From NCBI GenBank assembly GCA_022711115.1, contig JAKLFP010000008.1, forward strand, positions 6,617-70,616: DNA of 64,000 nt, read 5' to 3'. The stretch is from Candidatus Omnitrophota bacterium. GTDB lineage: Bacteria; Omnitrophota; Omnitrophia; Omnitrophales; Aquincolibacteriaceae. The notes below the pieces were generated by a model. It had not been told where the DNA came from and did no database searches. It saw only the letters and a program-made list of their open reading frames with translations. Below, piece after piece: positions 15,001 through 36,112 of the stretch (position 1 is its first letter; each line of letters opens with the position of its first letter). Both the position numbers and the translations under genes were made by a program.

Positions 15001-17092
15001 GGCGGTCAGGAAATACCGGGAAGGCAAGATCACAGAGGAAGCCTATGAAGAAACGAAAGCGCGTCTGAACCGGCTAGCCAATATCAGGCTGAATAAAGTC
15101 ATCAAGCTTGAGTTTGTGCTTATGATGAAACTACTCGATAACCGACGCTCCATTCGGAAAGTGCTGGATTCTCTGGTCGGTCACTTCGAAGAAAAAGAGC
15201 GAGAGCTTAAATGGCAAAGAATTCGGGAACTTCAAAAACGTAATGTTACGGAAGTGTTTGTGCGCAGCGCCTCCGACGATTACTTAAAAGTCAAATTGCT
15301 TAAAGATCTTGTGAGCCGACAGCGTGCGACTACCGGAGCCATCGAAAGAATCGAAAGCCGTTGGAATCAGCAAGAAACTTATTATTTAGCAACCATCAAG
15401 CAATTGTTCACAGCGTTGATTGATCATGAAAGCGCCGTTACCCAAAATCCAGCTCTTTGGAAAACGAAACTTTTAGATTATTTCAGGATGCGAAAAGTCG
15501 ATTTTAAAGGGAAATCCGATTCAGCAATCGGTGTGAACGATATTGCCGCAGCACTCTATTTGCGTCCCGATGTTGCTCAGGATGTTTTCTTGAGGATCAA
15601 GGCGTGGACGCGTCAAAAAACGGTAAAGGAACAAGAGGAACGAGTCAAAGTGGTCAGCCAACTTGTTCGTGATCTTATCCCGGATGAGGCGAAACACAAG
15701 GAAGGTCTTGAGAGGATCAAATACCGCAATCTTTTCAATTTCTTCCGTTCGCGGGATCATGTAGTTGCCAATTATGATACTGAGCACCGGAGAGCATGGG
15801 AAGCTATCGGATTTCTGACCGATTTAAAATTGCAATTACGCCACTATAAGAAAGAAGCGATTCCGTCATATAAAGTACGTAGTGCTCAACGCGATTTGAG
15901 GCAAGTTACCGATTGGGTGGAACATGGCAAAGTAAGTGAAAAAACTCGCATTAGGGAATTGATGCGGGTGGCTCAGGAAAATCTACAACTTGGGCAATAT
16001 GCGGTAACGATTTCGAAAGTGGAAGAAGCTCAGAGTATTCTGGAAAATGATTTCCTGGTCAGGATTGAGCGTATGAGCCGATTTGTTGCGCGCCACAAGG
16101 AATCCGTAAATTCTGAACTTGGAGCGCCGTTATCTATGATTCGAGCGGGAATCAAACACCGGGATCAAAGAGAATTTAAGAAAGCACTGACAGCATTGAC
16201 CCGCTTTCAGCATCGAAATATTGAAGGTTATACGGCGACCGAAGAAGAACCGGGTTACATACGCGCCAAAACTCGTTTTACTGTCATGATCAAGGCGCTT
16301 GAGAAACCCTTCGCAGAGAATAGACCAGTGAATCCTGCGGATCTCAGAGTAGTTCTCACGAATCTTTACCGCGTGCGCTATGACATCCAGCATAAATATG
16401 AAAAAATCGCAGAAATCGGAACGGAGGCCGACAAAATCAATCAAGAAGTCACGGCCAAGGTCACCCAAGATCTTGCTCTGGCTCGCTCTGAGATGAGGGA
16501 ACAACTACCAGGTGAAGGGCGAATTTCACCGGCATCAAGACCCGGTCTTGAACTTCGGGAGGCATCCGAACCCACGATCAATGTCAATACGATCTCAAAT
16601 ATCCAGGAACCGGTGGTGTTTGTGATTGAGCAGGCGAAGATTGATCAGCTGACGCCGGAGATGTTCAAGGAACTCCTGGCGCTTGCGGCGATCAATAAAG
16701 AAAGACTTCATGTCGTGATCCCTGATGCGTTGCAGGGGAAGTTCAGCGCCCGTGTCGGGGAACTCAAAACAATTGCCCATGTTTATTACGGGAATTTGCC
16801 GGAGGTCGCGAAATCACAAAAAGTCAAAGTGATTGGTTTTTCGCAGTCGGATGAAAATGTTGAGATCTTGAAGGCCCGATTTGGAGAAAGAATTGCGGGA
16901 CGGACTTCAGCTTATTTTACGACGGAGCAAACGGGAAGCTTCGCGGTCGCGTTGCTTTACGCGATCCAGAACATCAAACGGGAACAATTGAAAGTGAAGA
17001 ACGGCTACTTTTACGATGGGACAGGTTGGCTGACGAGCCGTGCACTTGAAATCCTCTGGAATTCCTATACGGTTATCTCCTCGGCAGCATAA
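44..17092 (+). CDS. giant membrane-associated protein of unknown function (>=5682 aa; 5' end probably upstream of window)
   Basis: One uninterrupted ORF of 17 kb in frame 2. The same frame has no stop from nt 2 to the first in-frame start (GTG at 44), so the N-terminus may lie outside the window. Hydrophobic helix-like stretches at about nt 233-290, 338-415, 868-935, 2098-2160, 5395-5480 and 5533-5605. 15 in-frame copies of the R-S-E-[MVIL]-R motif. P/A/K-rich low-complexity linker at about nt 8290-8545. All antisense ORFs inside it are short. I cannot name any domain from the sequence. Confidence 0.8.
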   Translation: MNEITFVVDYGTVGSNKSGTFSVTDLYFFSPPRSEMRSSIPEKEKPLEKIPVGMETKLERVQKIAIYLMRVSFLFLLGRLYLDMVGKSGNPFIDMPLKIPIWLSVSGIAFGYIFSAILFFLIKKHVGEEWSSGTQQLISEKKSQDPIISETEKDNAGQAPADFLKKQDESTPSERSEIRIALNKNTKIPDIAKALTGLPGLEGKDKRRAVARKILEVATTAGDKLIIADLQKIKELAGIATAELEKRFHITQAAPRAPPLSKKTVPQKNFLSFKTMIIPVALAAGVTAAVWLWNTYSPIARAYQTLLEYKNQVPPIPSTITRPGAEHHSIRWHGARMEVIGGAHGSDVGVAALLKLSKNEIMPHPKKWVLVTEGLLDAQKNGKEVLVPDIRIADYLNRTFNIPVEDVIPVLGDPEVVEILMKKTGLPREEILVADMFPRFHDFLSMTAKLLAAKGVGPDRGPSFDQIFAAFLETVRVLYQMPEPEIRRILLKAANDASNSNEVLEKFYGQINLVRVEMLKARNEIAAQRLKALVVKYPGKNFVVMIGALHLPVVGLKSDSFTTDVRLPSQSDIQWLANDIITHSRSEMRSEPVAPGAPRARSELKTESDKFTKAMKRVEVLGNKLTTLISFREDGPGVKKLEQLVEENFFSRRTNFLRSELRMNIKPISEDPFSKNRQVHSSRRQWLFRMGAGAILLSAACWFTVRNINSKNNKKNLPSTSKSMNLLGLYFVNHSSFDQIQPAFDKMDSDIAEYKRIQAGDPELVFFLEYVLSEEGLVQLVEHFSGVKAKDFDDLIQQHRELVEKNYNKLFYALSNQESIDRFFNDTSQVFGQIVQSLRKKYGKRIIFVVERVPFEVWLRCCKAQRFREMVRLDENGDISREWLKNHTSYLQENALVQFPRDEAFNAFMVDVGTRIFPSALKFTFRGLGHRINESLLGRNIKDFRPEDISADYIVREIEQRIRDGADLSSALTMASYYNDNFASSATAISDIRTFNLVTNEFQKNLLNLANESPQAIKKILIESVSIDKDMQHESSLIGKEIIALETSITQKTASGQMVVAEDIKRFSQLEGEFWKIYVAGNERLLGLSRKYNLISQKNYNLLLEANRQLYAKRKVEIFSKLEADLPMGIRQQLPRSEMRAAQEKSETAVVISRFRIDFSDARELQKDLEKIGIAAQAPDAEYIQFKGQDKAVAISDFQALVLAAEKAFGGKLNISVKKDPGSGKNILYAHRGKYPLAASSAEELIITLNRVISAVDLSKTAYLTHSLDITLPKNPAHPLVRELAGWVNHPGTLAQKVPDTDMRKVLLGAMIREHAELVLLDAFGFDAKTIGTIRKEFTQKQPVTAEKLLRFIHRTSMKKTDALMIWVKKYGPSLVRAVINPLIPFYGVLGDVLGEVGRGIADESSGFLEKERDEAVVQELTLWPVLIRTFVELVPEKIPMEAAGFPPKVIQELKGLKDPIVTMAGLDDLVNGPRFKDLKAATQQGILTCLLSVIPQLVSLEAIGVHPKIEEELGGIRINGFIEDGIRNVNELIDAFGNPEKFRLMELPPTTVRNLLLALLYAYPRHTLASLVAPYAGSLTAGDLIAYLAPEPVKEFLFPVLRPVWNSTLDELKAKFMGAEASIRSEMRSTDAITLDLTQEKGHRGVVELPGGMEGRIDFGSGGMYTAKELSGIYLTFKRDPKGAVRVQIIQNGNVKRQTILPGKTGRVIEIQGPMHFDEKVRFVFKNEPNSFFISTNSHWNTTLHYWHATGKFQESSGVFQTPDIPGKVLSKKDNVSTGLKSLGAFKRLFLNLALGFNIYAVGWWIHAFWDRRQSAILSSPVLEMSKETAAVGWLTVGLGTLSIGILSFILYKDFRNSWLISRFKIPKREAGESPRVPPSRSEVRMDHPEHLQLKVRAIAPALRIPSSKTGSGELTLLRLAQRGFTPAEFEAAIVSGQPPEAAVAALHGLRHPEHYWQALRVFFVRAALLHAVSWLSGGREPSVETILEAYLVLRREGRSDQEIFEFLVRRLNNNKVKEKLQATLKITAAQVIREAIEARVWVPEFLEWEQKLRAVVQDDFFTGMLEAQYAPGDFQTAAETALRQPQGEFARSFQQSFEALGIKDVPNAGILNVLRAYYLKAYLAHQKISTDENGTEQPLLGGQTLERGLIVRIYADLRSEGKNDQQVYEFLELALRTQKKAIASGQKSIAVVIEEALKARSEVRSNFRTERSGFQTAPVRAEMRVAAEARSELRSEQPDREKAFITRVLEAAREFGFSGPAALAILMKSIRPEQPARKQAQAVRQVSIEFPMNTPLPEAYQKWLRGEANEPEHVLILKREDAKTPAFVLKRENGKTRDFYFDTFGHNNILLIPYSTPQTGEVGFQIFLTALPVTSQPVKIRDLSLNKDQMIGGIQVKDQRTFLPEPKLWRAAKGSATAGRVGAYQFSDLLSRREGAAFERLMLIALHALTTGQIRSQQSLSTDPLLATYVQPDMIVTLHDRRQILDAKRGKGFENIAKSIMKYLLARDLNPDVLDAGVPIGIVALSSQEMENIRNSFSQFEEGKDYELILADDLVSELATMFPTHQRIGGEQGLTVEEIRQKLGYLRHEGAGEPTEETLAAEITMLNVIIGNLQIPSNGKKPVKTVKELIEIGKTNPDELLGYVRQTESRMDRFGERPLYTQEQLVVLQVNLTEIQAALNAVTGDAEWIREHLAEHEKLREILAVIDALISKIARRINLPAAAVASRERPGIKVASLASKEPVNQLIAEPLKATVPTTAEMKTLSESPKQPVAPAQAIETQPAPLPAEAIATKAEVTAAPALVAPKPETVAKPEKPSKPKAPRPAREQPQGKYESKVNLHLLEPGTSVYESVFGTHQQPKEPLDAVGALSKLLRVWTKRLKPEQDGILIRVQPRNRQAARQWEELGARSLRQHFGNRIADSLSSQTIHLEGIRGESPQGVSAIRIPISEPLDIPGLPEGLDAIHLVEGTGQGFAYLMRNTPHFRLVYERIQKPTFNFNDFQFLISLIRTGELRVLELPAYGFFTAEDMTSFIMNADLPQDIGAFLVSEEEARMIHEKKMKSALKKQKSDLVAAITQEVAAARKKLETALDSKRLAPGALVKLDAAQVKAIEAKIAELDALKIVEELFAIRSELRGDKQGISLEDARQALAEKKAVIEAQINALKLVGTELELFVHQAETLIKKGDQTAMNNWEYPKVLHYQEIRKLTPSDPVIQRLNDLTLSMILEFNEKKDSVSGDFLALMYGMMAVISAISIANEKSFFIEPVATVLKTSDLSGLELLLHATVQLLPLMTLSVSGGTLLTALCLSSEQYAHDRRFKNFVHNFAEMEMKAKFQNKGIIKSDQHRRYLARPEVMAEAVAIAETEYRKAEKPSAQLVVDFLMGHLAANANVEAMMHAMAGRVHEAISASEKITITIDPRRNYEYAREWFEKTQRADPNYPLWGRELLKDQTTENRGSLTAQLSGVPLHKRIFSALLRVPIRADNESCGVLAGALDIFFEVLMNEENHFGQSAGLHSKVSKFSAEHKVLRTFVEKTIAKGNPNYADVEAFRKRMAAWLELAEEIIGAPEFSGDKEKIARQLLKVRKAFTDWFAKHQIPFARIPENPATGNQEYIVVAMREEKSGRVFVGVPSATDFGKEVNSAAAEVSSAEVPVIFMDRDISSLMIEKGLTVIAMPRDSFMAGRDTEMVVFPQSLSGATLESIKLDLQPANKSLAVTALENARAHLLEIQIEAFKRSMEFFRQAYEMLQNESEGHPASREDELTRSFERLEKLWEQVSQSKPASGKSVVPFLEEVETHRKTLIGILQSGVVSRGKGERFLQDWAHHSASDYQFIFPKVITREDQRFGVIGFLDAAGDYYAASREASNRYVYINTAHPGSKPLRFRGGIQEIMLSGGRLVLGRLDTMKAVGEKETAVIMVAQVEGNAPIATRVLNAFLDTSLTLDTESGLLRETNISLVQAMEILRKTAVAPDQREAFQTDLMLVQVSYDGFNEALLAALGQGTVPYREMVKLFEKMASLQSDFETIQERNPSINKQQLNVFAKAALEKFLEWSRKQRVPFMGLVSGAEGKNINLVIGFLGRDGTLYIATQESHRFREVTDRADAKTVSFDNLPSFVRDEGMSILAIPQSALLEPRPEYIVFYPAVELLPSQALASDIPISSESAAQKSEPKSVVFPWDEMELVPAAPEHSQAVYEAFYKKQTFAVDKEVALEGLPIAEKVLAQLRRMHATQRDPFFRAATKGFELMVQALRTAAETGRLSVKLSNQCRTELEPLYSAKNVDDMHKASALKFLLPFAEFWKDHQDALIKRVQGINYRDQESELYHLQGVLGEDGKLYTTTDAMDTFVEITDAAEKKTISLPGRQGLLKALQEGKALILEIHNPMLKPEEMEARLTNLLMLRFKNSPARSEVRGTLTQQFPLGTIEFEFLMLHFLTKLSEDTGYDSEIRGDIFDPPEVWGKVTAEEMDNAVDKLVRAHPAGIAGEEQVSPVSYLFDQTGILVFDRASFLAAFDKMINTEFFDDLMEMAEGFEQAFDDFELEDPRFNVIKAYKAAAERILYFKYHRSEVRIDEAKIKQIVDELLEGDILMQPVDVTNYILRLGPYSSPKAGEVLKSVFKKYGLPEEGSGRSLPPGSPEMKLSFAILNEMIERHRKSWNVEPPGGETQTQGPARSEIRVQTSDVKSPVRFKDLMGSSSVKSSPIPSQDTLLIQVGKYLQGLPEADLNDILHSHGIMFPEGVRARLLKGFKDSTLKQTLLAKFGQTLNQRGVIGLAVSKDWIKRLTKSDKEYQVVWAGKDGKLYLLREFYEYLNNIPNDEERGKVAAALIVRFLIAKEFRQILREEEMPLEGKIRESVRAVEDYVYAARAIALSESQVDLRVRGFVYLQMYERKERFTRYAVPRVDWGSRIIRLETLLGRLYTLRDLLDTQKVVKTEDRETLKDIDESYKLDKDTEVLIRENLQGKSIEQLEEFQKQFSDSYLKIKSGIATAVRKYREGKITEEAYEETKARLNRLANIRLNKVIKLEFVLMMKLLDNRRSIRKVLDSLVGHFEEKERELKWQRIRELQKRNVTEVFVRSASDDYLKVKLLKDLVSRQRATTGAIERIESRWNQQETYYLATIKQLFTALIDHESAVTQNPALWKTKLLDYFRMRKVDFKGKSDSAIGVNDIAAALYLRPDVAQDVFLRIKAWTRQKTVKEQEERVKVVSQLVRDLIPDEAKHKEGLERIKYRNLFNFFRSRDHVVANYDTEHRRAWEAIGFLTDLKLQLRHYKKEAIPSYKVRSAQRDLRQVTDWVEHGKVSEKTRIRELMRVAQENLQLGQYAVTISKVEEAQSILENDFLVRIERMSRFVARHKESVNSELGAPLSMIRAGIKHRDQREFKKALTALTRFQHRNIEGYTATEEEPGYIRAKTRFTVMIKALEKPFAENRPVNPADLRVVLTNLYRVRYDIQHKYEKIAEIGTEADKINQEVTAKVTQDLALARSEMREQLPGEGRISPASRPGLELREASEPTINVNTISNIQEPVVFVIEQAKIDQLTPEMFKELLALAAINKERLHVVIPDALQGKFSARVGELKTIAHVYYGNLPEVAKSQKVKVIGFSQSDENVEILKARFGERIAGRTSAYFTTEQTGSFAVALLYAIQNIKREQLKVKNGYFYDGTGWLTSRALEILWNSYTVISSAA

Positions 17093-19226: not shown

Positions 19227-20483
19227 ATGTTCTCAACGGGCTGCAAGAGAAGAATAAGTATAGGTGTTGCTGTTTTTTTCTTTCTATTCCAGATTACCGC
19301 GTTTGCTGAGATCACGTATAAAGACCTTAAACTTTCGGAAACTTTTTTTCCGAAGCCCGTTTTTGTGACAAGCGTTTCAGTGATCGAGAATCCACAAACG
19401 CCCGGTTTTTTGACATTTTCGTTTCAAGCGCCCAGCGGAGCCTATAAGGCTCAGGGCCTTGTGGCGTACCGCAAACTTCTTCTTGAAACAGAGATCATCC
19501 AGCAGTTGGATACAAACGAAAGTACCAGCGGAGGAGTGGCTCAAGGCGCTGTAGATTCCGTCAAGGATACAGGACGGGGGTTGAAAAATCTGGTGGTGCA
19601 TCCCGTGGATTCCGCGCAGGGTATCGGGCGAGGGGTCGGAAAACTTGGGAGCAAGATCGGCGGGGCTTTCCAGAAAAAAGAAGAAGGGGAGAAGGAAAGC
19701 GCGGGAGATTCTTTTCTGGGTTCCACGAAAAGAGATCTGGCCAAGAAGCTGGGGGTGGATGTTTACAGCCGGAATGAAGAACTTCAAAAGCGTCTTAATT
19801 CTATGGCTAAGGCACGAATGGGAGGGCGCGGAGTTGTGGCCGTTGCGACATTCTTCATGCCCGTGGGGCTTCTTGCCTCCGCAGTGGTGACGGTGAGCAG
19901 CATCAATAGTGCGGCAGACCAGCTTGTCAATGACAACGATAAGGCAGACCTTTACAAGTTAAATGAAAAAGCGCTTTTGGTGCTTGGGTTTCCGCAGGGG
20001 CAGGTAACGCGTTTTTTGAACCATCCTTATTACACACCGCGCGAACTGACTTATTTGCGTTTTTATCTCGAAAAACTCAAAAATGTTTCCGGTTATAGGA
20101 ATATTTTCAGCGCGGCGCTTGATGCTCCGCCCGGAGTCTTTTCGGATCAAGTGCTTTATGAAGCGCAGATCGCTGCCGACGCGATGTCATGGCTTTCCGA
20201 TATTGAAAGGCTCTCCATGCTTCCCGAAGGACTTCTTGTGGAACGTAAAAATGCGGTGATCCTAATCGCAGCCTATGATTATTTGGATGCTTCGGCGTTC
20301 GGGAAAAAGATTGCGGATAAAGTTTACAGCCTGAAGCTCAAACTCGGTAAGAATTCTGCTGAGATCTGGAATGGAGGCGTTGTGTCCGACGGGTATGGCG
20401 GGGCCATGCTGCTGAGGGGCATCAAACTGCGCCGGATGTGTCTTTTCGGGAAAACGGGACTTAATGAACAAATGGCCGTGTAA
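19227..20483 (+). CDS. hypothetical secreted/membrane protein (418 aa)
   Basis: RBS ACGGAGG upstream. N-terminal signal-like hydrophobic segment. Gly-rich region and one internal hydrophobic stretch. No recognisable family. Confidence 0.55.
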   Translation: MFSTGCKRRISIGVAVFFFLFQITAFAEITYKDLKLSETFFPKPVFVTSVSVIENPQTPGFLTFSFQAPSGAYKAQGLVAYRKLLLETEIIQQLDTNESTSGGVAQGAVDSVKDTGRGLKNLVVHPVDSAQGIGRGVGKLGSKIGGAFQKKEEGEKESAGDSFLGSTKRDLAKKLGVDVYSRNEELQKRLNSMAKARMGGRGVVAVATFFMPVGLLASAVVTVSSINSAADQLVNDNDKADLYKLNEKALLVLGFPQGQVTRFLNHPYYTPRELTYLRFYLEKLKNVSGYRNIFSAALDAPPGVFSDQVLYEAQIAADAMSWLSDIERLSMLPEGLLVERKNAVILIAAYDYLDASAFGKKIADKVYSLKLKLGKNSAEIWNGGVVSDGYGGAMLLRGIKLRRMCLFGKTGLNEQMAV

Positions 20484-21597: not shown

Positions 21598-22185
21598 ATG
21601 AAGCATTTGATCGTTTACAGTCATCCGAATCCGGCGAGTTTTAACCACGCCATTCAAGAAACGCTAGTGCGTGTCTTGAAAGAAAAAGGACACCATGTTC
21701 GCGTACGGGACCTTTATGCGCTTCGGTTTGATCCCGTGCTTCGGGGAGACGAGTTGAAGCTGCTTCAGGAGAACCAATCCGTGTCCCGCGATACTGCGAT
21801 CGAACAAGAGCATGTACGCTGGGCCGATCAGATCACTTTCATTTATCCGGTCTGGTGGGGCCGGATGCCGGCTATGACCTGCGGCTATTTTGACCGTGTT
21901 TTCAGCAAGGGGTTTGCTTATGATTATGGCCCGGAGGGTCTTCAGAAATTATTGCCAGGAAAAAAAGTTTGTGCCATCAGCACCATGGGGGCACCGCTGT
22001 CCGCTTATGAGGATTCGGGCATGATGAAGAGTATGAAACAAACGATCGATGAAGAGAGTTTTCAATTTTGCGGTATGGTCTTGATCGAACACAAATATTT
22101 TGGTGCGGTCCCGACCGTTACGGATGAGGAAAGAAAAAAAATGCTCGGCGAAGTTGCTTCGATGGCGTCTGCTTGGCCGGTTTAA
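21598..22185 (+). CDS. flavodoxin-like fold NAD(P)H dehydrogenase (quinone)-family protein
   Basis: 195 aa. N-terminus LIVYSHPNPASFNHAI resembles NQO/MdaB-type flavodoxin-like reductases. RBS GGAGG upstream. Confidence 0.6.
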   Translation: MKHLIVYSHPNPASFNHAIQETLVRVLKEKGHHVRVRDLYALRFDPVLRGDELKLLQENQSVSRDTAIEQEHVRWADQITFIYPVWWGRMPAMTCGYFDRVFSKGFAYDYGPEGLQKLLPGKKVCAISTMGAPLSAYEDSGMMKSMKQTIDEESFQFCGMVLIEHKYFGAVPTVTDEERKKMLGEVASMASAWPV

Positions 22186-22195
22186 GGGAAAAACC

Positions 22196-23974
22196 ATGGC
22201 ACCAGCTTCTTTTGTGGGTTCTTTCAAGATCTCAGAGAAAAAAGTCGTTATCCGGCTGAAGAATCAAATTTGTGATTCTGCGGAAGAGCTTTTGCGCAGC
22301 GATCTTTGTCACGAAATCATCAAACGAGCCATCGCTTCGCTTCAGCGCCGCCATTCCATATTGCTCAGGATCTTCGGCTCTAAAGAGATCAATGAATCAA
22401 ATATCCGTATTCTGATCCAAACGTTTGAATTTCTTGAAAAAATGCCCATGGAACTTGTCGGACGCGTTGTTCAGGGCGCCGAGGAATATCTTCGGGACAA
22501 AAATTTGCTCAATGATTTTGTGGAATTTCTGTACAACTACTGGCGCAGTTTTGACCGGTTCATTATTTGTGATTCCGAAGGTGATCAGCTGGACAAACGG
22601 CCTTTTCGCACCTTCACGAACACCATCGAAGACTTAACGGCGCTTGTCCGTAAAACTTATCGTGAAATTCAGGAAAATATCACCGGGACGCATCCGCGCA
22701 TTTACCGTCAAGTTGCCGCCGGTGCCGAAATGGCAGCGATCGCGTTGCCTAAAGAAATCCCGTATCCCACGGATCTTTACAGGAAACTGAACGCGATTCC
22801 TGTGATTCGGCAGGTCCTTTTTTATCCACCTCTTGTGCTGAATCAATTAAACAACACGCGCGAAGGAAAATTCGAACGTGTTCAGGAAAATCCTCTCGCG
22901 CGTTTTGACCTGAATCGTGATGAATGGCTCTGTTACCCGGTCAAGACCGGGGACTTGCGCATCTTTGTTTATTTTAAAGAAAAATTCTTCGAAATGGGTC
23001 TTTCACTTTGCAATCTGTTTGAGATGGCCAGTGATGAGGATCTCAAACGCCAGCCGGATGCAGTTTATGTTTACGGGGCGCCGGAAAAAGCCTTGGAATA
23101 TCCGGGCGTCTTCCCGACGGTTTTTTATGATGATCAGGAGAACGGTCTCTTGATCGGTGCTGTGCCGGAGTCGGACCGTTTCGGGTATTTTGGCTATCTC
23201 AAAAAAATGATCCTGACGCTCCACAACATTAAGAGGATCAAAACGGGTCGCATGCCGTTTCACGGGGCCTTCATGAAACTTTATCTGAAAGGCAAAAAAC
23301 CTGCGACACTTCTTCTCATGGGAGATACGGGCGCCGGAAAATCCGAGACACTTGAGGCTATGCGCGGTTTTGGCGCAGAGCTCATTCAGGATGTGGTGGT
23401 GGTCGCGGATGATATGGGTTCTCTTGAGTTGAGACCCGACGGCAATATTGCCGGTTATGGGACCGAGACCGGGGCGTTTTTAAGGCTGGATGACCTGAAA
23501 CCCGGTTATGCGCTCGGCCAAATCGACCGGGCCATTATCATGAGTCCGTCCCAAACCAATGCGCGTATCGCGCTTCCGGTGACAACTTTTGATAATATTA
23601 TTCAAGGTCATACCGTGGATTTCGTGCTTTATGCGAACAATTACGAGGATATTGATGAGGATCATCCGATCATCGAAAAATTCAAACATCCCGAGGAGGC
23701 CATCAAAGTCTTCCGGGAAGGCGCTGTGATGAGCAAGGGGACCACGAAAACAACGGGACTGGTGCACACCTATTTTTCCAATGTATTTGGCGCGATTCAA
23801 TACAAAAACGAACATGATGTGTTGGCCAAAAAATTCTTCGAAGCTTTTTTTAACAAGGGGATTTTTGTCGGTCAAATGCGCACACGGTTGGGTGTTCCGG
23901 GCTGGGAACGCAAAGGACCGGAAGAATCCGCGAAGGAGCTTTTGGAAACGATCAAAAGTGATCCTCGTTTTTAA
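22196..23974 (+). CDS. protein with HPr kinase/phosphorylase-like P-loop C-terminal domain; N-terminal about 370 aa unknown
   Basis: The supplied ORF (22100..23974) overlaps the upstream gene. ATG at 22196 has an AAGGGA RBS and begins right after the upstream stop. The HGAF...GDTGAGKSETLEAM...IADD stretch parallels the HprK C-terminal Walker-A region (GDSGVGKSE). Confidence 0.6.
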   Translation: MAPASFVGSFKISEKKVVIRLKNQICDSAEELLRSDLCHEIIKRAIASLQRRHSILLRIFGSKEINESNIRILIQTFEFLEKMPMELVGRVVQGAEEYLRDKNLLNDFVEFLYNYWRSFDRFIICDSEGDQLDKRPFRTFTNTIEDLTALVRKTYREIQENITGTHPRIYRQVAAGAEMAAIALPKEIPYPTDLYRKLNAIPVIRQVLFYPPLVLNQLNNTREGKFERVQENPLARFDLNRDEWLCYPVKTGDLRIFVYFKEKFFEMGLSLCNLFEMASDEDLKRQPDAVYVYGAPEKALEYPGVFPTVFYDDQENGLLIGAVPESDRFGYFGYLKKMILTLHNIKRIKTGRMPFHGAFMKLYLKGKKPATLLLMGDTGAGKSETLEAMRGFGAELIQDVVVVADDMGSLELRPDGNIAGYGTETGAFLRLDDLKPGYALGQIDRAIIMSPSQTNARIALPVTTFDNIIQGHTVDFVLYANNYEDIDEDHPIIEKFKHPEEAIKVFREGAVMSKGTTKTTGLVHTYFSNVFGAIQYKNEHDVLAKKFFEAFFNKGIFVGQMRTRLGVPGWERKGPEESAKELLETIKSDPRF

Positions 23975-23996
23975 TAGGTTTTTCCGTATTCTCTCC

Positions 23997-24025
23997 TTCA
24001 TACCTCACTTTCTATTGTGCTATAA
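23997..24025 (+). promoter_or_regulatory. putative sigma70-type promoter TTCATA-17-TGnTATAAT upstream of the GH57 gene
   Basis: -35-like TTCATA at 23997-24002, 17-nt spacer, TATAAT at 24020-24025 with TG at 24017-24018. Lies about 60 nt upstream of the ATG at 24086. Confidence 0.4.
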
Positions 24026-24085
24026 TAAAAAATATTGGAATCCTCTTTAATTTAGAAAGCTATAAGGACGAGGACGGTTTTCGCT

Positions 24086-26584
24086 ATGGCAAAAGAAGTT
24101 TGCATTTGTCTCCACGGCCATTTTTATCAGCCGCCGCGGGAGAACCCTTGGATCGAAGAGATCGAGCAGCAGGACAGCGCTGCACCGTTTCATGACTGGA
24201 ACGAACGCATCCATTACGAATGTTATCACCCGAATTCCAGCGCCCGTGCGTTGGACGGCAAGGGCAAGATTGTGGATGTGGTTAATAATTTCGAACGATC
24301 TAGCTTTAATTTCGGTCCCACGCTTCTTTCCTGGCTTCAGCTGAAACATCCCAATACCTACCAAAGCATCCTTCTTGCCGACCGCCTGAGTTGCGAAGCC
24401 CATCGCGGACACGGGAATGCCATCGCCCAGGTTTATAACCACATGATCATGCCATTAGCGAATCTCAGGGATAAAAGAACCCAGGTCCGTTGGGGGATCG
24501 AGGATTTTCGGCATCGATTCGGGAGATATCCGGAAAGTATCTGGTTGCCAGAGACCGCATGCAACGAAGAAACGCTGGAGGTTTTGGTGGCAGAAAAGGT
24601 CAAGTTTATCATTCTTTCTCCGCATCAGGCCCGGGCTGTGCGGCCGTTGGAGGGGGGCGAGTGGCGGGACGTGATGGGGGGGCGTATCGATCCCAAAGAA
24701 CCTTACCGCTATTTTTTAAAAAATAATCCGTCGCTTTATATCGACATTTTCTTTTATGACGGCCCCATTTCCAAGGCGGTGGGTTTTGATAATCTTCTTT
24801 TTGACGCGAAGAATTTTATGCAGCGGCTCCAAGGCGCCGTTGTGGATTGGGACCGGCCGCAGCTGATCCATATCGCGACGGACGGCGAAACTTACGGGCA
24901 TCATAAGGCCTATGGAGACCGCGTGTTGGCCTACTTGACTTATATCGAGATTCCGCGGCACGGTTACCGGATCGTCAATTATGCGGAGTTTTTAGAAGAA
25001 AATTCGCCGCGACAAGAAGTAAGGCTTATCGAGGGAGAAAATAACGAGGGAACTTCGTGGAGTTGCGCGCACGGAGTAAGCCGTTGGAAAGATCACTGCG
25101 GATGCCGGGGAGACGGGCCGGCGAACTGGACTCAACATTGGCGCAAACCGCTTCGTTGGGCGCTTGATTGGTTGCGGGATGAATTGGCTCAGATCTATGA
25201 GCAGGAAGGCGCTAAATATCTTCGGGATGTTTGGAGTGCGCGTGATCATTACATCCATGTTGTTTTGGACCGCAATGAACAGATACTCAAGGAATTTTTT
25301 AGCCGTCAGGCAGTTCGTGAACTTGGCAAACAAGAGATCACGACCTGTCTAAAATTGCTTGAGATGCAGCGCAATCTTATGTTGATGTACACAAGCTGCG
25401 GTTGGTTTTTCTCGGAGCTTTCAGGTATCGAAACGGTCCAGATTCTTCAGTACGCGGCACGGGCAGTTCAGTTGGCCCAGGAAGTGAGCGGGTTGAATTA
25501 TGAGAGAAATTTCCTGGAGCATCTTGCTTTGGCCAAGAGTAATATAGATCTTTTTAAAGACGGGCAGGGAGTTTATGAAAAACTGGTGAGACCTGCCATG
25601 GCATCCCTTCATCATATCGTCAGTTATTATGCCATCGGTTCTATTTTCGAAAATTTTTATGGCCAGGATCCCAAAGCCGACCGTTTAAAAATTTTCAATT
25701 CCGATCTTCAGATTATACATCAAAGGAAGGAATTTTTCGGCACCGTCACGATGAATTTCGGCCGTGTGAAAGTGGTTTCTCTGACCACGCTGGAGGAACA
25801 AGATCTGATTTTTGTTGTGATTCAAATCGGTTTTTATGATTTTCGTTGTTCCGTGAAGGCCTATACGAATGACGAAGATTTTGAAAAGCTTGAGCGGGAT
25901 CTTTTTGAAGCCCTTTACCAGCTTCCGATCCTGGATCTTTCAAAACGGATCGACGCACATTTTGGAGAGGCCTATTATGCGTTAAAAGATTTACGTCTTG
26001 GCGATCGCGCCAAGATTATCAGCATCCTCACGCATGAGACCATCGCAAAAGTCAGTAATTTTTATGAGAACATCTACGAAGAAAACTTGAGAATGAATGA
26101 AATCTACCGGTCCATCAACGTTCCGATCCCGGTGGAATTTCGCTATGCCGCAGAGCATACGCTCAGTAAGCGGCTGATGGAAACGGTTCGGGATTGGGGG
26201 AACCGCGGATTTCCCAGCAAGCGGACACTGCCGATTTACCGAGTCATGGATTCTGCCAAGGCGCTGGATGTGCAGATTCACAAAGAGGCCATTTCGCATT
26301 ATTTAAGCGAAGAACTCATGAAAGGCGTGAGGGAATTCATTACAAGCCTTGATCCGGAGATGATTCAAAAGCTTCTGTCCATTGTCCGGCTTTCGAAAAA
26401 AATCGATGTTTTCCTCGATAGAAGGGAAGCCCAGGATGATCTTTTTGCACTTTTCAAAACGTGGAAAGGCAATCCCCAAGCCATCCCTCAAGTGATCCGT
26501 CAGGAAGAAAATCATTTTCTTCAGCTAATGGATGAACTTGATCTTTCCGCGGATCGGCTCAAAAAAATCCTCGGGGGTTACTAG
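24086..26584 (+). CDS. glycoside hydrolase family 57 protein (alpha-glucan acting, long form about 830 aa)
   Basis: N-terminal HGHFYQPPREN (the H-x-H-Q-P type motif of GH57). IWLPETAC contains the GH57 WLPE nucleophile motif. TDGETYGHH follows downstream. 832 aa. Confidence 0.7.
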   Translation: MAKEVCICLHGHFYQPPRENPWIEEIEQQDSAAPFHDWNERIHYECYHPNSSARALDGKGKIVDVVNNFERSSFNFGPTLLSWLQLKHPNTYQSILLADRLSCEAHRGHGNAIAQVYNHMIMPLANLRDKRTQVRWGIEDFRHRFGRYPESIWLPETACNEETLEVLVAEKVKFIILSPHQARAVRPLEGGEWRDVMGGRIDPKEPYRYFLKNNPSLYIDIFFYDGPISKAVGFDNLLFDAKNFMQRLQGAVVDWDRPQLIHIATDGETYGHHKAYGDRVLAYLTYIEIPRHGYRIVNYAEFLEENSPRQEVRLIEGENNEGTSWSCAHGVSRWKDHCGCRGDGPANWTQHWRKPLRWALDWLRDELAQIYEQEGAKYLRDVWSARDHYIHVVLDRNEQILKEFFSRQAVRELGKQEITTCLKLLEMQRNLMLMYTSCGWFFSELSGIETVQILQYAARAVQLAQEVSGLNYERNFLEHLALAKSNIDLFKDGQGVYEKLVRPAMASLHHIVSYYAIGSIFENFYGQDPKADRLKIFNSDLQIIHQRKEFFGTVTMNFGRVKVVSLTTLEEQDLIFVVIQIGFYDFRCSVKAYTNDEDFEKLERDLFEALYQLPILDLSKRIDAHFGEAYYALKDLRLGDRAKIISILTHETIAKVSNFYENIYEENLRMNEIYRSINVPIPVEFRYAAEHTLSKRLMETVRDWGNRGFPSKRTLPIYRVMDSAKALDVQIHKEAISHYLSEELMKGVREFITSLDPEMIQKLLSIVRLSKKIDVFLDRREAQDDLFALFKTWKGNPQAIPQVIRQEENHFLQLMDELDLSADRLKKILGGY

Positions 26585-26807: not shown

Positions 26808-28910
26808 ATGAGTAATATAAATACCGAAAAAACGGCGTTGATGAGTACGCTTCCTGGCGACGATGTGCGTCAGATTATGTGGCGTTTCGCGGACCGTTAC
26901 GAACACCAAATGGTTGTCCAGGCGACGCGATCCGTAGCGCGAGGAATGGTTGCGCGTCTTGTGGCGGACAAACAGCGTCATACGCATGACTGGACTCCTC
27001 AGAAGCAGGAAATGCTCAAGGCTTTTGACGAAGCCGGTGTGACCGCGGCTTTTATGGAACCGGATCAGGGCGGTTATATCACTGGACCCAAGAACCTTGT
27101 GCTCGCACTTGTTGCGTTTGAACTCGCATGGGTGGATGCCGGTGCCGCGACTGCAAGTTTAGCGAATAATCTCGCTCTGGAGCCGATCCACGAAAAAGGG
27201 ACGCCCGAGCAGATCCATCATTATATGAGCGGTTGCGTGCCGCCGAAACCGGGTGAGAAGCGGGAGATCCTCCGCGGTTCTTTTGCTTTGACCGAACCGC
27301 TTCCTTATGTCGGCGTGGATGCCGGCATGCTTTCCGGAAAGATTCGCATCGCGGAATGGAAAGAAGGGAAGGAACCGATCATCCAGGTTGAAAAGCGCGG
27401 CCGTTTCATCACAAACATGGGTTATGCAACGTTCGTGACGGCAGCGGTGGACACCGATGACCCGCGCATCAAATCCAGTTGCATGGTTATTCTGGAAAAA
27501 GGTGATCAGGGCATTTACGACCCAGGCGCGCCGACCTTGAAGCTGGTGCACCAACTTTCCTGCACGCATGATCCCATCTTTAACTTGAAGATCCCTGCCA
27601 GCCGTATTATCGGCGGGTATACGATCAAAGACGGCGTGATTATCCCGAATTACAATCACAATGAAGTCATCGAGGCCGTGTTCCGTCGGACGCGTGTGAC
27701 CGTGGCTATGATGACGACTGCCAAACTGCTTTCCGCGATTGAACCGGTGATCCGCTATCAACGTACCCGTTATCGCGGTGGCGAAGCGGCGAAACCGGGA
27801 ACACCTCGTTATGATCTGGGGATCCAGCAAAAAGAAGACGCGCAGCACCGTCTTCTCGATGTCTGGGCCACCGGAGAGGCCAGCGCTTCACTCGGTTTTG
27901 AAGCGGCACGTCTCTTTGATGAATTCGATCCGCTTGAAAAGCAAAAGGATGCGATGTTCTTGAAAGATGGCATCAAAGGACCGCGTGCGCAGATGAAAGT
28001 GTTCGCAGAACCCCGCAAGAGAGCTCTTGAATATATCGAGATCATGGGGAAACCCGAAGCGCAGCGCGATGCGAAGCGTGTTCAGGACCTTGAGAATGAT
28101 TTTCTCACCATGTATGTGGTGAAGGAATCACTGGCCGATGTGTTTTGCCCGGCTTGTAAACTTTGGAACACGGGTTATGGCGCGACGATGATGCGCGAAG
28201 CCGTTAGTCTCATGGGCGGTTACGGAATTACGGAAGACTGTCCTGGATTTTTGACTCAAAAATGGTCGGACGCTCAGCTTGAAGCGACTTACGAAGGTCC
28301 GGAATGCGTGCAACGCCGTCAAATGAGTTTGACCATGGTCAGTGATGTTTTCCTTGCCCAGTTCAAAAACTGGATCAAGGATCTTCGCGCTTTAGATGCG
28401 AAGAAGCCTGGCATGGGCGCCGGGACACTTGCGAGCGCGATGGAACTCTGGCTTTGGTCTATCGAATATCTTCAGAACGCGAAAGACGCAAACGGGAAAA
28501 CGCTTTATGCGGGTCAGCGTCAAGGCGTGACATTTCCGATGGCGGATGCGCTTGCGTGGCTGCTGGGGTCGCGTCAATTGATCCTCGATACACTGGAACT
28601 CGAAAGAAAAGGTCCTGAAAATTCCGTGCTTGCCGAAGGTCTGACGGGATTTGTGAATTTTTACAGCGATCTTAGCTACCTTCAAGCCGCAAGGGCGGCC
28701 GGCGAAGTAGGGAAGGTCTGCGCAGAATTGGTGTATGGCTATCAAGCAAAAGGGGCTACTTGCGCGTTGCCTAATGCGGCGATCAAGACTTTCGCAGAAC
28801 TTCGTTCGAAACTGGATGGTTCACTTGCCGGCGCGCGTCTTGCTAAAGATCGCGCGGCGGAAGCAGTCACTCAAGTGATGATCCCGGAAGCGTTGGATTA
28901 TCCGCTCTAA
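26808..28910 (+). CDS. acyl-CoA dehydrogenase family protein (700 aa, long form)
   Basis: GSFALTEP...G.D motif typical of the ACAD middle domain. Overall ACAD-like helical N-terminus. Adjacent to ETF/ETF-QO genes. Confidence 0.65.
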   Translation: MSNINTEKTALMSTLPGDDVRQIMWRFADRYEHQMVVQATRSVARGMVARLVADKQRHTHDWTPQKQEMLKAFDEAGVTAAFMEPDQGGYITGPKNLVLALVAFELAWVDAGAATASLANNLALEPIHEKGTPEQIHHYMSGCVPPKPGEKREILRGSFALTEPLPYVGVDAGMLSGKIRIAEWKEGKEPIIQVEKRGRFITNMGYATFVTAAVDTDDPRIKSSCMVILEKGDQGIYDPGAPTLKLVHQLSCTHDPIFNLKIPASRIIGGYTIKDGVIIPNYNHNEVIEAVFRRTRVTVAMMTTAKLLSAIEPVIRYQRTRYRGGEAAKPGTPRYDLGIQQKEDAQHRLLDVWATGEASASLGFEAARLFDEFDPLEKQKDAMFLKDGIKGPRAQMKVFAEPRKRALEYIEIMGKPEAQRDAKRVQDLENDFLTMYVVKESLADVFCPACKLWNTGYGATMMREAVSLMGGYGITEDCPGFLTQKWSDAQLEATYEGPECVQRRQMSLTMVSDVFLAQFKNWIKDLRALDAKKPGMGAGTLASAMELWLWSIEYLQNAKDANGKTLYAGQRQGVTFPMADALAWLLGSRQLILDTLELERKGPENSVLAEGLTGFVNFYSDLSYLQAARAAGEVGKVCAELVYGYQAKGATCALPNAAIKTFAELRSKLDGSLAGARLAKDRAAEAVTQVMIPEALDYPL

Positions 28911-28984
28911 AAACAGAAAACAACAGGTGGAAGGCGATCGTTTTTGAAGCCATCCATCTTTTTCCATTCTGAGGGAACAATAAA

Positions 28985-30838
28985 ATGACCACTGAACGTC
29001 AAAAGATGGATGTTGATATTGTCTGCGTTGGTTTCGGGCCTGCTTCGGCGGGATTTTTAACCACACTCACTCGTGCCATCCAACAGGATCCTACCGCGCC
29101 ACATTTTCAGAGTAAAGTCATGCCCGGCATGCCACTTCAGGTCATTTGTTATGAACGCGCGGATGACATCGGTTTTGGTGTTTCGGGGATCGTAACAGAA
29201 GCAAAAGGCATTAAGGCTTCTTTCACGGCAGAAGAACTTTCCCAGATTCCGATGGCGCATCCTGTTAAACACGAGGAAGTCTATTATCTTCTCGATCCGG
29301 TGGGCGCGAGTCGTAGATCCTGGCTCTTGAAAATGGCCGATTTCTTTCTGAGAATCTTTAAATGCATTCTTCCTTGGTTTAAAAACGAAGCCTTTCAATT
29401 GCCGTTTATTCCTCCGTTTATGGCCAAACATGGCGGCTATGTTTTTTCCATGGGGCAGTTCACGCAGTGGCTTGGTTCCAATCTGATGGGTTCGGGTCTT
29501 GTTCAAATTTGGCCGAGTATGCCGGTACGAGAACCGCTTTTTGACAGTAACCGTGTTGTGGGAGTCCGGCTGGTGGATCAGGGCGTTGAGAAATCCGGAA
29601 AACCAACGGGTGCTTTTATGCCGGGAATGGATATTCATGCGGCATTGACCGTGGTGGGCGACGGACCTTACGGGCCAGTGGGACAGAATCTCGATCAGAA
29701 GTTTGGGTTGCCGGAAGGGAATCACCAGCGAGAATGGGCGCTTGGTATGAAGGCCGTTGTGGAACTTCCTGAAACGACAGCGCTCAAACCCGGGACCGTG
29801 ATTCACACTTTCGGTTATCCGGAACCCGAAATCTTTGGTTTTCTTTATGTTTATCCTAATCGCATGGCTTCTCTCGGAATTTTTATTCCGAGTTGGCTTA
29901 AGAACCCCATGCGGACAGGTTACCGCTATCTTCAGCACTGGATGCAGCACCCGACTTTGTGGAAACATCTCCAGGGTGCGACTCTGAAATCCTGGGGCGG
30001 GAAAAGTCTGCAGGAAGCCGGAAAACGCGGTGAACCTTTTATCGTGGGCGATGGTTTCGCGAGGATCGGCGAAGGTTCGGGGAGTACGAATATGCTCAAG
30101 GGATCCGGAGTGGACGAGGCGTGGACGACGGGGGTTCAGCTTGCCGAAGGTGTGATCGAAATTCTAAAAACAGGGAAAACTTTTACGAAAGAAAATCTGG
30201 AAGAAACCTATCTGAAACGGCGTCGCGCAAGTTGGGTCGAACAAGAAGGAAACATCGCTAAGAAGGCCCGCGACGGCTTCCAGCATTCTTTTGAACTTGG
30301 ATTTATGGGCATGGGCATCAGTGGCTTTACGAACGGCACCATTCATATTCCGGCCAAACTCAAGCCTGTTTATGAACATGTGCCGTCACTTGAAAAGTAT
30401 TATCAAGGTCGTGTTGCGGTGGATAGGATTGAAAAAGCTTGCAAAGAAGCCAATGCGACGAATACTTCCATGCATGATGCGTTGATGGATGCCGCAGGTT
30501 GGCCTGCGATTCAGTATGACGGAAAACTTCTTATCTCGCACCAAGATGCTCTTTTATTAGGTGGGAAGGTCCAGGCTGCAGAAGGCTATGCGGATCATGT
30601 TCTCTTTCTGGATGGCCGAAAATGCGAAAAATGTTCAACCAAGATTTGTATTGAGATGTGCTCCGGACAGGCTATCACAGCCAACTCTGACGGGACTGTT
30701 CCTCTTTTTGACCGTGAAAAGTGTATCCACTGTGCGGCGTGTCTTTGGAATTGTGCCTACGCACGGGAACAGGGAAGCGAACTCACAAATGTCGATTTCC
30801 GTGCCGGTTCTGGCGGGCTGCACTCCAACATTAATTGA
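28985..30838 (+). CDS. FixC-like FAD-dependent oxidoreductase (ETF-quinone oxidoreductase family) fused to a FixX-like ferredoxin
   Basis: 617 aa. N-terminal DVDIVCVGFGPASAGF dinucleotide-binding motif. C-terminal CEKCSTKIC...C and CIHCAACLWNC cysteine clusters. Lies immediately upstream of etfB/etfA. Confidence 0.7.
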   Translation: MTTERQKMDVDIVCVGFGPASAGFLTTLTRAIQQDPTAPHFQSKVMPGMPLQVICYERADDIGFGVSGIVTEAKGIKASFTAEELSQIPMAHPVKHEEVYYLLDPVGASRRSWLLKMADFFLRIFKCILPWFKNEAFQLPFIPPFMAKHGGYVFSMGQFTQWLGSNLMGSGLVQIWPSMPVREPLFDSNRVVGVRLVDQGVEKSGKPTGAFMPGMDIHAALTVVGDGPYGPVGQNLDQKFGLPEGNHQREWALGMKAVVELPETTALKPGTVIHTFGYPEPEIFGFLYVYPNRMASLGIFIPSWLKNPMRTGYRYLQHWMQHPTLWKHLQGATLKSWGGKSLQEAGKRGEPFIVGDGFARIGEGSGSTNMLKGSGVDEAWTTGVQLAEGVIEILKTGKTFTKENLEETYLKRRRASWVEQEGNIAKKARDGFQHSFELGFMGMGISGFTNGTIHIPAKLKPVYEHVPSLEKYYQGRVAVDRIEKACKEANATNTSMHDALMDAAGWPAIQYDGKLLISHQDALLLGGKVQAAEGYADHVLFLDGRKCEKCSTKICIEMCSGQAITANSDGTVPLFDREKCIHCAACLWNCAYAREQGSELTNVDFRAGSGGLHSNIN

Positions 30839-30925
30839 TTCAAAAAGGAACTAGCCGAAAGGCGTTTCCCCCGATATAATTACGCAAATCCCCTAAGGTA
30901 ATCATCTCTCAATTGGAGGTTGTTC

Positions 30926-31735
30926 ATGACTACAGCTTTTAATATCGTGGTGTGCGGGAGCTTAGTGCCGGATCCTCTCCAGACCTTGGAACCCATTCAG
31001 GGCCCGACTGGTCCCGCTTTAAAAAATGAAATGATGCTGCCTTCGGTGCTCGATCCGTGGGCCGGTCACGCGCTTTTTGAAGCCGCAAACCTGGCAAAGC
31101 ATCATCCGGGGACCAAGGTTTACCTTGTCAGTCTGGGGCCTAAAGCCAAGCTGCAGCAACTGATGATGACGATCGCCCAGAAAGTTCCTTTTGAGTTCGT
31201 TTGTTTGGACGGCCCTGCAAGTGGTTTTCTGGATTCCCGTGAAGTCGCGAAAGCTCTTGCGAGTGCGATTGAAAAAATCCCGGGATTGGATAAGACCAAA
31301 CTTCTTGTGTTTGGCGGCTACTCGTCAGCATCGCGCGATGCCGGGACGACCATGCAGATGATCGCAGAACAACTCGGTATTTCCGACGTATTTTTGGGTG
31401 CGGACGAACTCAAAGTACAACCGGATGGTTCCTTCCGGATCATGGAACGTATCGAAGGCGGGCAATACCAGATCTCTTCCTGTGCCGGCGCTCCTATCGT
31501 GATCGGCTGGGCGACCGGAAATCTTCCCGAACCGCCGAATAACCCGCAGGTCGGAATGGCGAATATGCGGACCATCATGCCGGCACTCCAAAAGGCGCAA
31601 CCGGCAGCGCTCAAGACAGATGGTATTCAATATGCGAGTGTCCAACTACCTCAGCAGCAGCGGCAGACCAAAATTGTTAAAGATACGCCTGTTGAAGAGA
31701 TCGCCAAAGAAATTGTGGCATGGATTAGGAGCTGA
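30926..31735 (+). CDS. etfB: electron transfer flavoprotein beta subunit (FixA-like)
   Basis: The supplied ORF starts at TTG 30920. The ATG at 30926 has a GGAGG RBS 6 nt upstream. The VVCGSLVPDP start resembles the ETF-beta VCIKQVPD motif. About 270 aa, directly followed by etfA. Confidence 0.6.
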   Translation: MTTAFNIVVCGSLVPDPLQTLEPIQGPTGPALKNEMMLPSVLDPWAGHALFEAANLAKHHPGTKVYLVSLGPKAKLQQLMMTIAQKVPFEFVCLDGPASGFLDSREVAKALASAIEKIPGLDKTKLLVFGGYSSASRDAGTTMQMIAEQLGISDVFLGADELKVQPDGSFRIMERIEGGQYQISSCAGAPIVIGWATGNLPEPPNNPQVGMANMRTIMPALQKAQPAALKTDGIQYASVQLPQQQRQTKIVKDTPVEEIAKEIVAWIRS

Positions 31736-31737
31736 TC

Positions 31738-33432: not shown

Positions 33433-33438
33433 GGGCGC

Positions 33439-34428: not shown

Positions 34429-34467
34429 TTTTATAAAGCCCACACGATTGTTTCTCAGCTGATCTTT

Positions 34468-34507
34468 TTTACGCCATCTTTACACTTCCATCACGCCGAT
34501 TTGACAC
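34468..34507 (+). promoter_or_regulatory. array of four PhoP/PhoB-type direct-repeat half-sites at 11-bp phasing upstream of the porin gene
   Basis: TTTACGC (34468), TTTACAC (34479), ATCACGC (34490), TTGACAC (34501). Centres are exactly 11 bp apart. Lies about 70 bp upstream of the ATG at 34578. Confidence 0.45.
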
Positions 34508-34577
34508 GTTCTTTTTATCATTTCCTCAGAAGATAAAATCTCAAAATCTAAACCATGGGATAACAGGAGGAAGTGAT

Positions 34578-36110: not shown

Positions 36111-36112
36111 AG

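Follow-up and report, generated by a model that had tools for sequence, protein, structure and literature searches.

The gene and the predicted fold of its product

The stretch of Candidatus Omnitrophota DNA analysed here (64,000 nucleotides in length and hereafter called the window) contains, at 22196..23974 of the + strand, a complete open reading frame (ORF) of 592 amino acids. The ORF call and conservation over the full length place its product in an uncharacterised family of the superfamily that holds phosphoenolpyruvate carboxykinase (PEPCK) and HPr kinase/phosphorylase (HprK/P). The ATG start lies at 22196 and the stop codon at 23972-23974; a mechanical ORF list offered a longer version beginning with a TTG at 22100. 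Since this version would run into the upstream gene, whose end is at 22185, since an AAGGGA Shine-Dalgarno-like site is found within TAAGGGAAAAACC directly 5' of the ATG, and since the start positions of homologues coincide with that same ATG, we assigned the gene to 22196-23974. A protein identical at 100% (592 residues, P0001) is on record from a Candidatus Omnitrophota metagenome-assembled genome (MAG). An earlier note on this DNA had called the same ORF and quoted from it HGAF and LLLMGDTGAGKSETLEAMRGFGAELIQDVVVVADD; both were found in place, at residues 356-359 and 372-406.

An AlphaFold2 model derived from 23 homologues gave a predicted local distance difference test (pLDDT) score of 78 and a predicted template modelling (pTM) score of 0.78. 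Comparison of this model with the PDB using Foldseek returned PEPCKs, both ATP- and GTP-dependent, as all of the top 50 matches, with E values of 7e-10 to 3e-8 over about 360-450 aligned columns and identities of about 12-16%. As modelled, the 592-residue protein has the two-domain PEPCK fold, in which an N-terminal domain is followed by a C-terminal domain bearing the P-loop. The earlier note had instead described an HprK-like domain fused to an unknown N-terminal region; that description gave way to a PEPCK-type fold throughout, with a globin-like insert.

The insert is a predicted globin-like, non-haem helical module within the N-terminal domain (residues ~29-165; 22280..22690, + strand). 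It was modelled with a pLDDT of ~90 for residues 30-120 and is present in none of the solved PEPCKs matched, among which it is therefore without precedent. The core of the PEPCK-type N-terminal domain follows (residues ~170-325; 22703..23170, +) and holds N220-x-R222-x-G224-x-F226 as well as an NLFE...KPD motif that aligns with NMFIRP...KPD of PckA, the ATP-dependent PEPCK. The PEPCK-type C-terminal domain, responsible in PEPCKs for nucleotide binding and phosphoryl transfer, occupies residues 326-592 (23171..23971, +) and was delimited by the fold and by hhalign. Loops of low confidence in the model are residues 128-139, 170-176, 211-221, 448-463 and 512-524. Conservation was counted here and below among 46 diverse family members. 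Within the helical insert Y113, W116, R121, Y155 and R156 are conserved, and R171 and Q172 are further conserved residues of the N-terminal domain; judged by their conservation, all of these could contribute to substrate binding. No conserved His was found in residues 1-170, where H39 and H53 are variable already among the closest homologues and H166 occurs in 8/46 members. Because the module has no conserved His, it is, if a relative of globins, a non-haem one like that of RsbR.

Active-site motifs and profile comparisons

Residues of the family were mapped onto PckA by hhalign. The first motif, YFGYLKK (residues 331-337; 23186..23206, +), corresponds to PckA Y207-G-G-E-M-K212-K213, a segment that binds CO2 and the enolate and in which K213 is an Mn ligand; Y331 and G333 are each conserved in 43/46 members, K336 in 45/46 and K337 in 39/46. 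H356-G357 (23261..23266, +; 39/46 and 43/46) is equivalent to PckA H232, another Mn ligand, and also to the HG of HprK/P. The Walker-A P-loop, GDTGAGKSE (residues 376-384; 23321..23347, +), places K382 and S383 at PckA K254 and T255. Within it G376, D377, G381, K382 and E384 are conserved in 43-46 of the 46 members, S383 in 42 and G379 in 39. The family consensus for this loop, GDSGAGKSE, conforms to the HprK/P signature GxSGxGKSE, which reads G[DKQE]SGVGKSE in real HprK/P sequences, whereas PEPCKs have GLSGTGKTT, which starts at G248 in PckA. The kinase-2 motif ADDMG (residues 404-408; 23405..23419, +) supplies a metal-binding Asp pair, D405 and D406 (each 43/46), that hhalign equates both with PckA D268-D269 and with the 'ADD' motif of HprK. 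D377 and E384 of the P-loop and the [AF]-D-D motif are thus of HprK type.

Further downstream, E424-x-G426-x-x-x-R430 (23465..23485, +; 45/46, 46/46 and 41/46, respectively) was equated with PckA E282, G284 and K288 by its spacing from D406/D269, as the hhalign runs were not clean in this stretch; K288 of PckA E282-G-G284-C-Y-A-K288 is given as the phosphate-binding Lys. NARIALP (residues 455-461; 23558..23578, +) corresponds to PckA N331-T-R333-V-S-Y-P337, whose R333 binds substrate, with N455 conserved in 42/46, R457 in 41/46 and P461 in 43/46 members. Lastly, F527-x-N-x-F-G532 aligns with the PckA FSACFG motif. By these alignments, residues equivalent to those that hold Mn2+, enolate and phosphate in PEPCK are present in the family.

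Profile comparisons were conducted between the 46 family members, a set of nine ATP-PEPCKs (E. coli PckA, six more from plasmid or mislabelled chromosome records, and two Omnitrophota PckAs) and six real HprK/P sequences. Against the ATP-PEPCK set the family profile gave an E value of 1.3e-5 (probability 80%) over 410 columns, with query residues 146-591 aligned to PckA 24-467; against E. coli PckA alone it gave 2.5e-5 (probability 75%) over 235 columns. The match to HprK/P was the strongest (E 1.6e-7, probability 94%). It spans only query residues 245-426 and is centred on residues 354-410, nearly all of the signal coming from PiHGam...GDSGAGKSEtLEAl...DDMG against HGvlv...G.SGvGKSE.aLeL...aDD. 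The ATP-PEPCK and HprK/P sets compared with each other reached only E 0.008 and a probability of 5%. Since the family profile matches both groups, while these barely match one another, the family bridges HprK/P and PEPCK in sequence space. The earlier note had likened part of the C-terminal region, here the P-loop core H356 to D406, to HprK and had named a lack of similarity to HprK or PEPCK P-loop folds as refuting its reading; the profile comparison puts the resemblance to HprK beyond chance, and it and Foldseek together revealed similarity to PEPCK as well. Homology of the family to the PEPCK/HprK superfamily is close to certain.

These data also bear on the idea of an HprK/P-like bifunctional enzyme, a protein Ser kinase/phosphorylase that would have the globin-like domain as its sensor and perhaps, as its target, a central-metabolic enzyme such as PEPCK. 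The leading profile match, the GD[ST]GxGKSE loop with its conserved A/F-D-D pair, and the resemblance of the helical module to RsbR-N and globin-coupled-sensor domains would all suit such a protein. However, the similarity to HprK is confined to ~55 residues, the N-terminal domain is PEPCK-like rather than HprK-like, and the motifs with which PEPCK binds its small molecules are conserved. Taken with the genomic context described below, we regard this as a highly doubtful explanation.

Curated models were matched below their thresholds. A match to Hpr_kinase_C (PF07475) had been expected in the earlier note, and the window protein did not reach it (E 0.13, 12.2 bits against a Pfam cutoff of 33.3); 11/46 family members matched this model, all sub-threshold, and TIGR00679 (HprK/P) scored 12.3 bits on the window protein against a cutoff of 240. 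PF01293 (PEPCK_ATP) gave sub-threshold matches in 33/46 members (best E 2.3e-6), and the NCBIfam PEPCK subfamily model was matched by 26/46 (best E 8.2e-8), again below its cutoff. Searches of PDB sequences with the single protein and with two family profiles retrieved nothing beyond P-loop noise. Several sub-threshold matches would suggest a generic P-loop nucleoside triphosphatase, such as a zeta-toxin-like kinase, an ABC-type ATPase or a defence-system ATPase: Zeta_toxin (E 0.003 on the window protein), AAA_29, ABC_tran and, through PADLOC, mad8 (E 4e-4) and PglZ, alongside the name 'EcfA2' given to members of the family by JGI. Yet these matches cover only residues ~360-415, which is to say the P-loop, and neither the window nor any conserved context yielded a transporter or toxin-antitoxin partner. 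The fold searches, which ranked PEPCK far ahead of anything else and returned no ABC or zeta fold, effectively refute the toxin, ABC, defence and generic P-loop readings, to which we give almost no credence.

Distribution of the family and its genomic context

The family is large and widespread. More than 3,600 homologous clusters at 90% identity were counted, 595 representatives at 50% identity were recovered at E <= 1e-3, and relatives were confirmed at no fewer than 597 stretches of a one-genome-per-species collection. Members are full-length (about 540-600 residues) down to ~25% identity. Across phyla the identity to the window protein is 54-61%, and conservation spans the whole length, N-terminal region included. 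The hosts belong almost entirely to anaerobic lineages, among them Omnitrophota, Bacteroidales/Rikenellaceae, Anaerolineae, Spirochaetota, Negativicutes (Propionispora, Pelosinus, Sporomusaceae, Lucifera), Syntrophus, Syntrophorhabdus, Desulfobacterota, Atribacterota, KSB1, Actinomycetota, Victivallales, Bipolaricaulota, Ilyobacter polytropus (Fusobacteriota were also named) and Anaerococcus. NCBI labels members either 'phosphoenolpyruvate carboxykinase' or 'hypothetical protein'. Scans of the 46 members against Pfam and NCBIfam found no curated hidden Markov model backing either the NCBI or the JGI name, and the carboxykinase label is, for this family, an unproven extrapolation.

We clustered 744 ORFs from 82 family loci and found no neighbour conserved across phyla; only a Bacteroidales synteny was recovered, whose partners we read by eye, rather than from tool matches, as probable holA, YqgE, an 803-residue ORF resembling a 2-oxoacid dehydrogenase E1, and others. 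In a Pfam census of 69 same-strand, closely spaced putative operon partners, no single Pfam family occurred more than 3 times, and beyond the Bacteroidales synteny the only recurrent partners were CxxCxxCC, in three cases, and pckA, in two. Genes around the family member in Lucifera and in Propionispora are unrelated. Citrate synthase, isocitrate dehydrogenase, class I/II aminotransferases and argininosuccinate synthase were occasional neighbours; all but the last were taken as hints of a role in central carbon metabolism. Full-length identity of 54-61% across phyla together with the lack of a conserved partner gene is the pattern of a core metabolic enzyme, and such identity would be unusual for a regulatory kinase. 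The earlier note had also seen no genes of the phosphotransferase system (PTS) nearby, and tblastn with E. coli HPr, EI and EIIA detected none in the 64-kb window or in the 82 family loci (~0.96 Mb in total), which, as does the want of a conserved partner gene, argues against an HprK/P-like role. In favour of that role stands the proximity of the gene to pckA in two genomes.

At these two loci, both from Omnitrophota MAGs (L028, 3678-7746; L061, 3050-7755), the order is pckA(ATP), a CxxCxxCC gene (PF03692, 211-213 residues) and the family gene, with stops and starts that overlap or nearly overlap and so form an apparent operon. Its PckA is unmistakable (PF01293 at 701 bits, 58% identity to E. 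coli PckA). A flavin mononucleotide reductase gene lies upstream of pckA in L061, and in another locus (L024) the CxxCxxCC gene directly precedes the family gene. The pckA operon ties the family to the phosphoenolpyruvate (PEP)/oxaloacetate node and also shows that the family does more than stand in for PckA. As a separate observation, in L088 (1-35; Paracoccus ferrooxidans pFER4) the alphaproteobacterial pckA has a 'serine kinase' gene ~235 bp upstream of it, in divergent orientation. We take this to be the known pckA / hprK-PTS(Ntr) neighbourhood of alphaproteobacteria; the pair may represent an independent genomic association of two branches of the superfamily.

The window gene itself is flanked by a gene for a Flavodoxin_2 protein resembling NAD(P)H quinone reductases (21598..22185, +), which ends 10 nucleotides before the ORF, and by a GH57 + DUF3536 gene (24086..26584, +), separated from it on the 3' side by a gap of 112 nucleotides and provided with a promoter-like site of its own. 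Pfam thereby substantiated the quinone reductase and GH57 neighbours named in the earlier note. The flavodoxin-like gene and the 592-residue ORF are probably co-transcribed. A promoter/terminator scan of the window, whose counts equalled the shuffled expectation, is a weak hint that the two form a bicistron. The triad of Flavodoxin_2 (NQO-like), family gene and GH57 + DUF3536 (window, 21598-26584) recurs at two loci of close Omnitrophota, L097 (6406-11394) and L098 (6411-11330). It is retained at 81% and 72% identity with differing outer flanks and is gone at 61%, so that it marks a close lineage only; L098 also keeps the acyl-CoA dehydrogenase and electron-transfer flavoprotein (ETF):quinone oxidoreductase (ETF-QO) genes that follow in the window. 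The GH57 + DUF3536 gene is a lineage-specific neighbour that lies outside the family signature. Further out in the window are genes for rubrerythrin, class II fructose-bisphosphate (FBP) aldolase, an NAD-dependent epimerase, acyl-CoA dehydrogenase, ETF and ETF-QO, beyond which comes a Pst/PhoU phosphate-uptake cluster. The aldolase and GH57 genes are close to the 592-residue gene and were counted as central-carbon context.

Several other features of the window were recorded. A single giant ORF of 5,682 amino acids (44-17092, +) fills its first 17 kb and carries, along its length, over 12 copies of a short motif R-S-E-[MVIL]-R (PPRSEMRSS, HSRSEMRSE, SERSEIR, PSRSEVRM, ARSELRSE and HRSEVRI, for example); the motif resembles a linker or a processing site that is put to regular reuse in a giant protein of Omnitrophota. 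A 418-residue ORF (19227-20483, +), with the FBP aldolase gene on one side and the epimerase gene on the other, had no Pfam match at E <= 1e-5; in L097 its place is taken by a 409-residue ORF that likewise has no Pfam match. The regions 26808-32772 and 44167-45846 hold two ETF-QO-like genes (28985-30838 and 44167-45846), a 700-residue acyl-CoA-dehydrogenase-like protein and an ETF alpha/beta pair. For an Omnitrophota bacterium with a small genome, this is a large electron-transfer flavoprotein module. A complete phosphate-acquisition block lies at 32800-42675 and comprises PhoU_div with a PHO4 transporter, a porin, a PstS-like binding protein, two permeases, an ABC ATPase, PhoU and a convergent Cache/HAMP/PAS histidine kinase.

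Proposed reaction and relation to known enzymes

Given the fold, PEPCK motifs that run collinear and a degree of conservation like that of housekeeping enzymes, the reading we favour, with moderate confidence, is that the 592-residue protein is a soluble, metal-dependent, PEPCK-like small-molecule phosphotransferase acting at or near PEP/oxaloacetate. The earlier note had left the choice between a novel regulatory kinase and a PEPCK-like phosphotransferase. The latter is upheld by the fold and the motifs, whereas the former has become the weaker option, given the conserved PEPCK substrate and metal motifs. Metal ligands, substrate class and reaction are drawn by analogy with PckA and HprK/P. 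The phosphoryl donor would bind at the P-loop G376-E384, where K382 would hold its phosphates. The Mg2+ ligands would be S383, E384 and D405, on the model of HprK/P, and a second metal would be bound by K337, H356 and D406 as in PEPCK. A carboxylate or enolate substrate would lie between the two domains in contact with Y331, K336, R430, N455 and R457, and at least one conserved Arg of the N-terminal domain (R222, R171, R156 or R121) would also touch it. The chemistry would most likely be the interconversion of PEP and oxaloacetate or a close analogue of it. The donor may be ATP, GTP or pyrophosphate (PPi), several being considered since the family does not conserve the residues with which ATP-PEPCK binds adenine and has a P-loop of HprK type. 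The globin-like insert would probably serve as a lid, or as an allosteric or substrate-specificity module.

A number of observations weigh against this assignment. The window protein has no PF01293 match at E <= 10 and matches the NCBIfam PEPCK subfamily model NF006821 at E 2.7e-4 with 19.7 bits, the cutoff being 369; every PEPCK-model match in the family is in fact far under its curated threshold. By hhalign the C-terminal domain stops at the equivalent of about PckA residue 467, leaving the last ~70 residues of PckA absent, and the adenine-binding segment of PckA (R449-I-S-I-K-D-T455, RISIKDTR) aligns to KGPEESAKE, which starts at K573. PckA R65 of the GRSPKDK loop, the key oxaloacetate/CO2-binding Arg of its N-terminal domain, falls opposite residues ~200-208, a stretch with no conserved Arg; R222, in N-K-R-x-G-x-F, is a candidate equivalent picked out by eye. 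The active-site geometry was derived from alignments rather than from model coordinates, and the pLDDT is <50 in residues 448-463, which hold N455 and R457, and in residues 512-524. A literature search, with queries that included identifiers of cultured members (Ilyobacter polytropus E3H6S6 / WP_013387115, Lucifera LUCI_1581 and Propionispora P22_2415), found no publication on the family, assays included. Finally, two genomes carry a canonical ATP-PEPCK in one operon with the family gene, which speaks against a simple redundant PEPCK and would fit a different donor, direction or substrate.

A different substrate is the essence of the main rival, in which the protein would be a PEPCK-fold kinase or kinase/decarboxylase for another small molecule, such as a 2-oxo or hydroxy acid or a phosphorylated sugar acid, with the insert and the N-domain Arg residues setting specificity. 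The pckA gene alongside in L028 and L061, the failure of the alignment to place an R65 equivalent, and the conservation of Y113, W116, R121, Y155 and R156 in an insert peculiar to the family are all in keeping with it, as is the linkage of the window lineage to GH57 and flavodoxin-like genes and not to genes of the tricarboxylic acid cycle. Nevertheless, the PEPCK-specific YxGxxKK, His and NxRxxxP elements are all retained, ExGxxxR is retained as well (on the spacing-based mapping to PckA), and no recurrent neighbour points to another pathway. We consider this rival possible, although on the unlikely side.

A more specific version of the PEPCK-like phosphotransferase can also be proposed. An HprK-type P-loop, a lost adenine pocket, occurrence in PPi-rich anaerobes and coexistence with ATP-PEPCK suggest, speculatively, that the donor may be something other than ATP and could be PPi. 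The P-loop of HprK/P also accepts PPi and phosphate (Pi), and a PPi-using variant is conceivable here for that reason. The family might then constitute a fourth PEP carboxykinase-type class between HprK/P and PEPCK, joining the enolate/CO2 site of PEPCK to the Pi/PPi-competent P-loop of HprK/P: a compact PPi-dependent (or other non-ATP-dependent) enzyme with which anaerobes act on PEP/oxaloacetate, and for which a non-haem globin-like sensor module may serve as a gate. Such a class would explain the presence of the gene in one operon with a canonical ATP-PEPCK; we think it improbable in this full form. No solved structure and no Pfam or NCBIfam model was found for the family. Because it has no curated model, structure or assay and its members bear the names PEPCK and EcfA2, anyone reconstructing the metabolism of anaerobes either includes a PEPCK that is unproven or overlooks a conserved enzyme of the PEP-pyruvate-oxaloacetate node.

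Among known systems, DUF4914 (PF16260; profile length 612) is likewise uncharacterised and gave weak P-loop matches in 19/46 members (best E 5.6e-5). These extend over only ~50-65 residues (profile ~218-286) at no more than 18 bits, against a threshold of 25.7, and the P-loop lies elsewhere in the profile, so DUF4914 was set aside as a separate family. The non-haem globin-like sensors, namely the RsbR N-terminal domain and the globins of globin-coupled sensors, have no sequence similarity to the insert, which has no conserved proximal His, and the likeness may be structural convergence of a helical bundle. GTP-PEPCK (9E32, for example) and PPi-PEPCK (Propionibacterium freudenreichii 8E1U) gave no sequence-level signal with the family; PPi-PEPCK, at 1,126 residues, is about twice the size of the family protein, and we know of no obvious counterpart in the family to the guanine-binding Phe residues of GTP-PEPCK. 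HprK/P (PF07475, TIGR00679) is a protein of ~310 residues with a different N-terminal domain and with the protein HPr as its substrate. It shares with the family the signature HG...GxSGxGKSE...ADD (here H356-G, G376-D-T-G-A-G-K-S-E384 and A404-D-D) and has no counterpart of YxGxxKK or NxRxxxP. ATP-PEPCK (PckA; PF01293, TIGR00224; E. coli 1AQ2 and Trypanosoma cruzi 1II2) is similar in size, ~530-540 residues against 592, and has the motifs in the same order: NMF/NLF...KPD, YxGxxKK, the His, the P-loop Lys, DD, NxRxxxP and F[SA]xxFG. It differs in its kinase-2 motif (GDDEHGW, compared with [AF]DDMG in the family) and in having no ~135-residue globin-like insert; moreover, the family coexists with true PckA in some genomes. 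The novelty of the family, within a known superfamily, is that it combines the architecture of PEPCK with a catalytic loop of HprK type and a globin-like insert. Its profile matches to both groups make it a natural intermediate in which to study the divergence of a protein kinase/phosphorylase and a carboxykinase.

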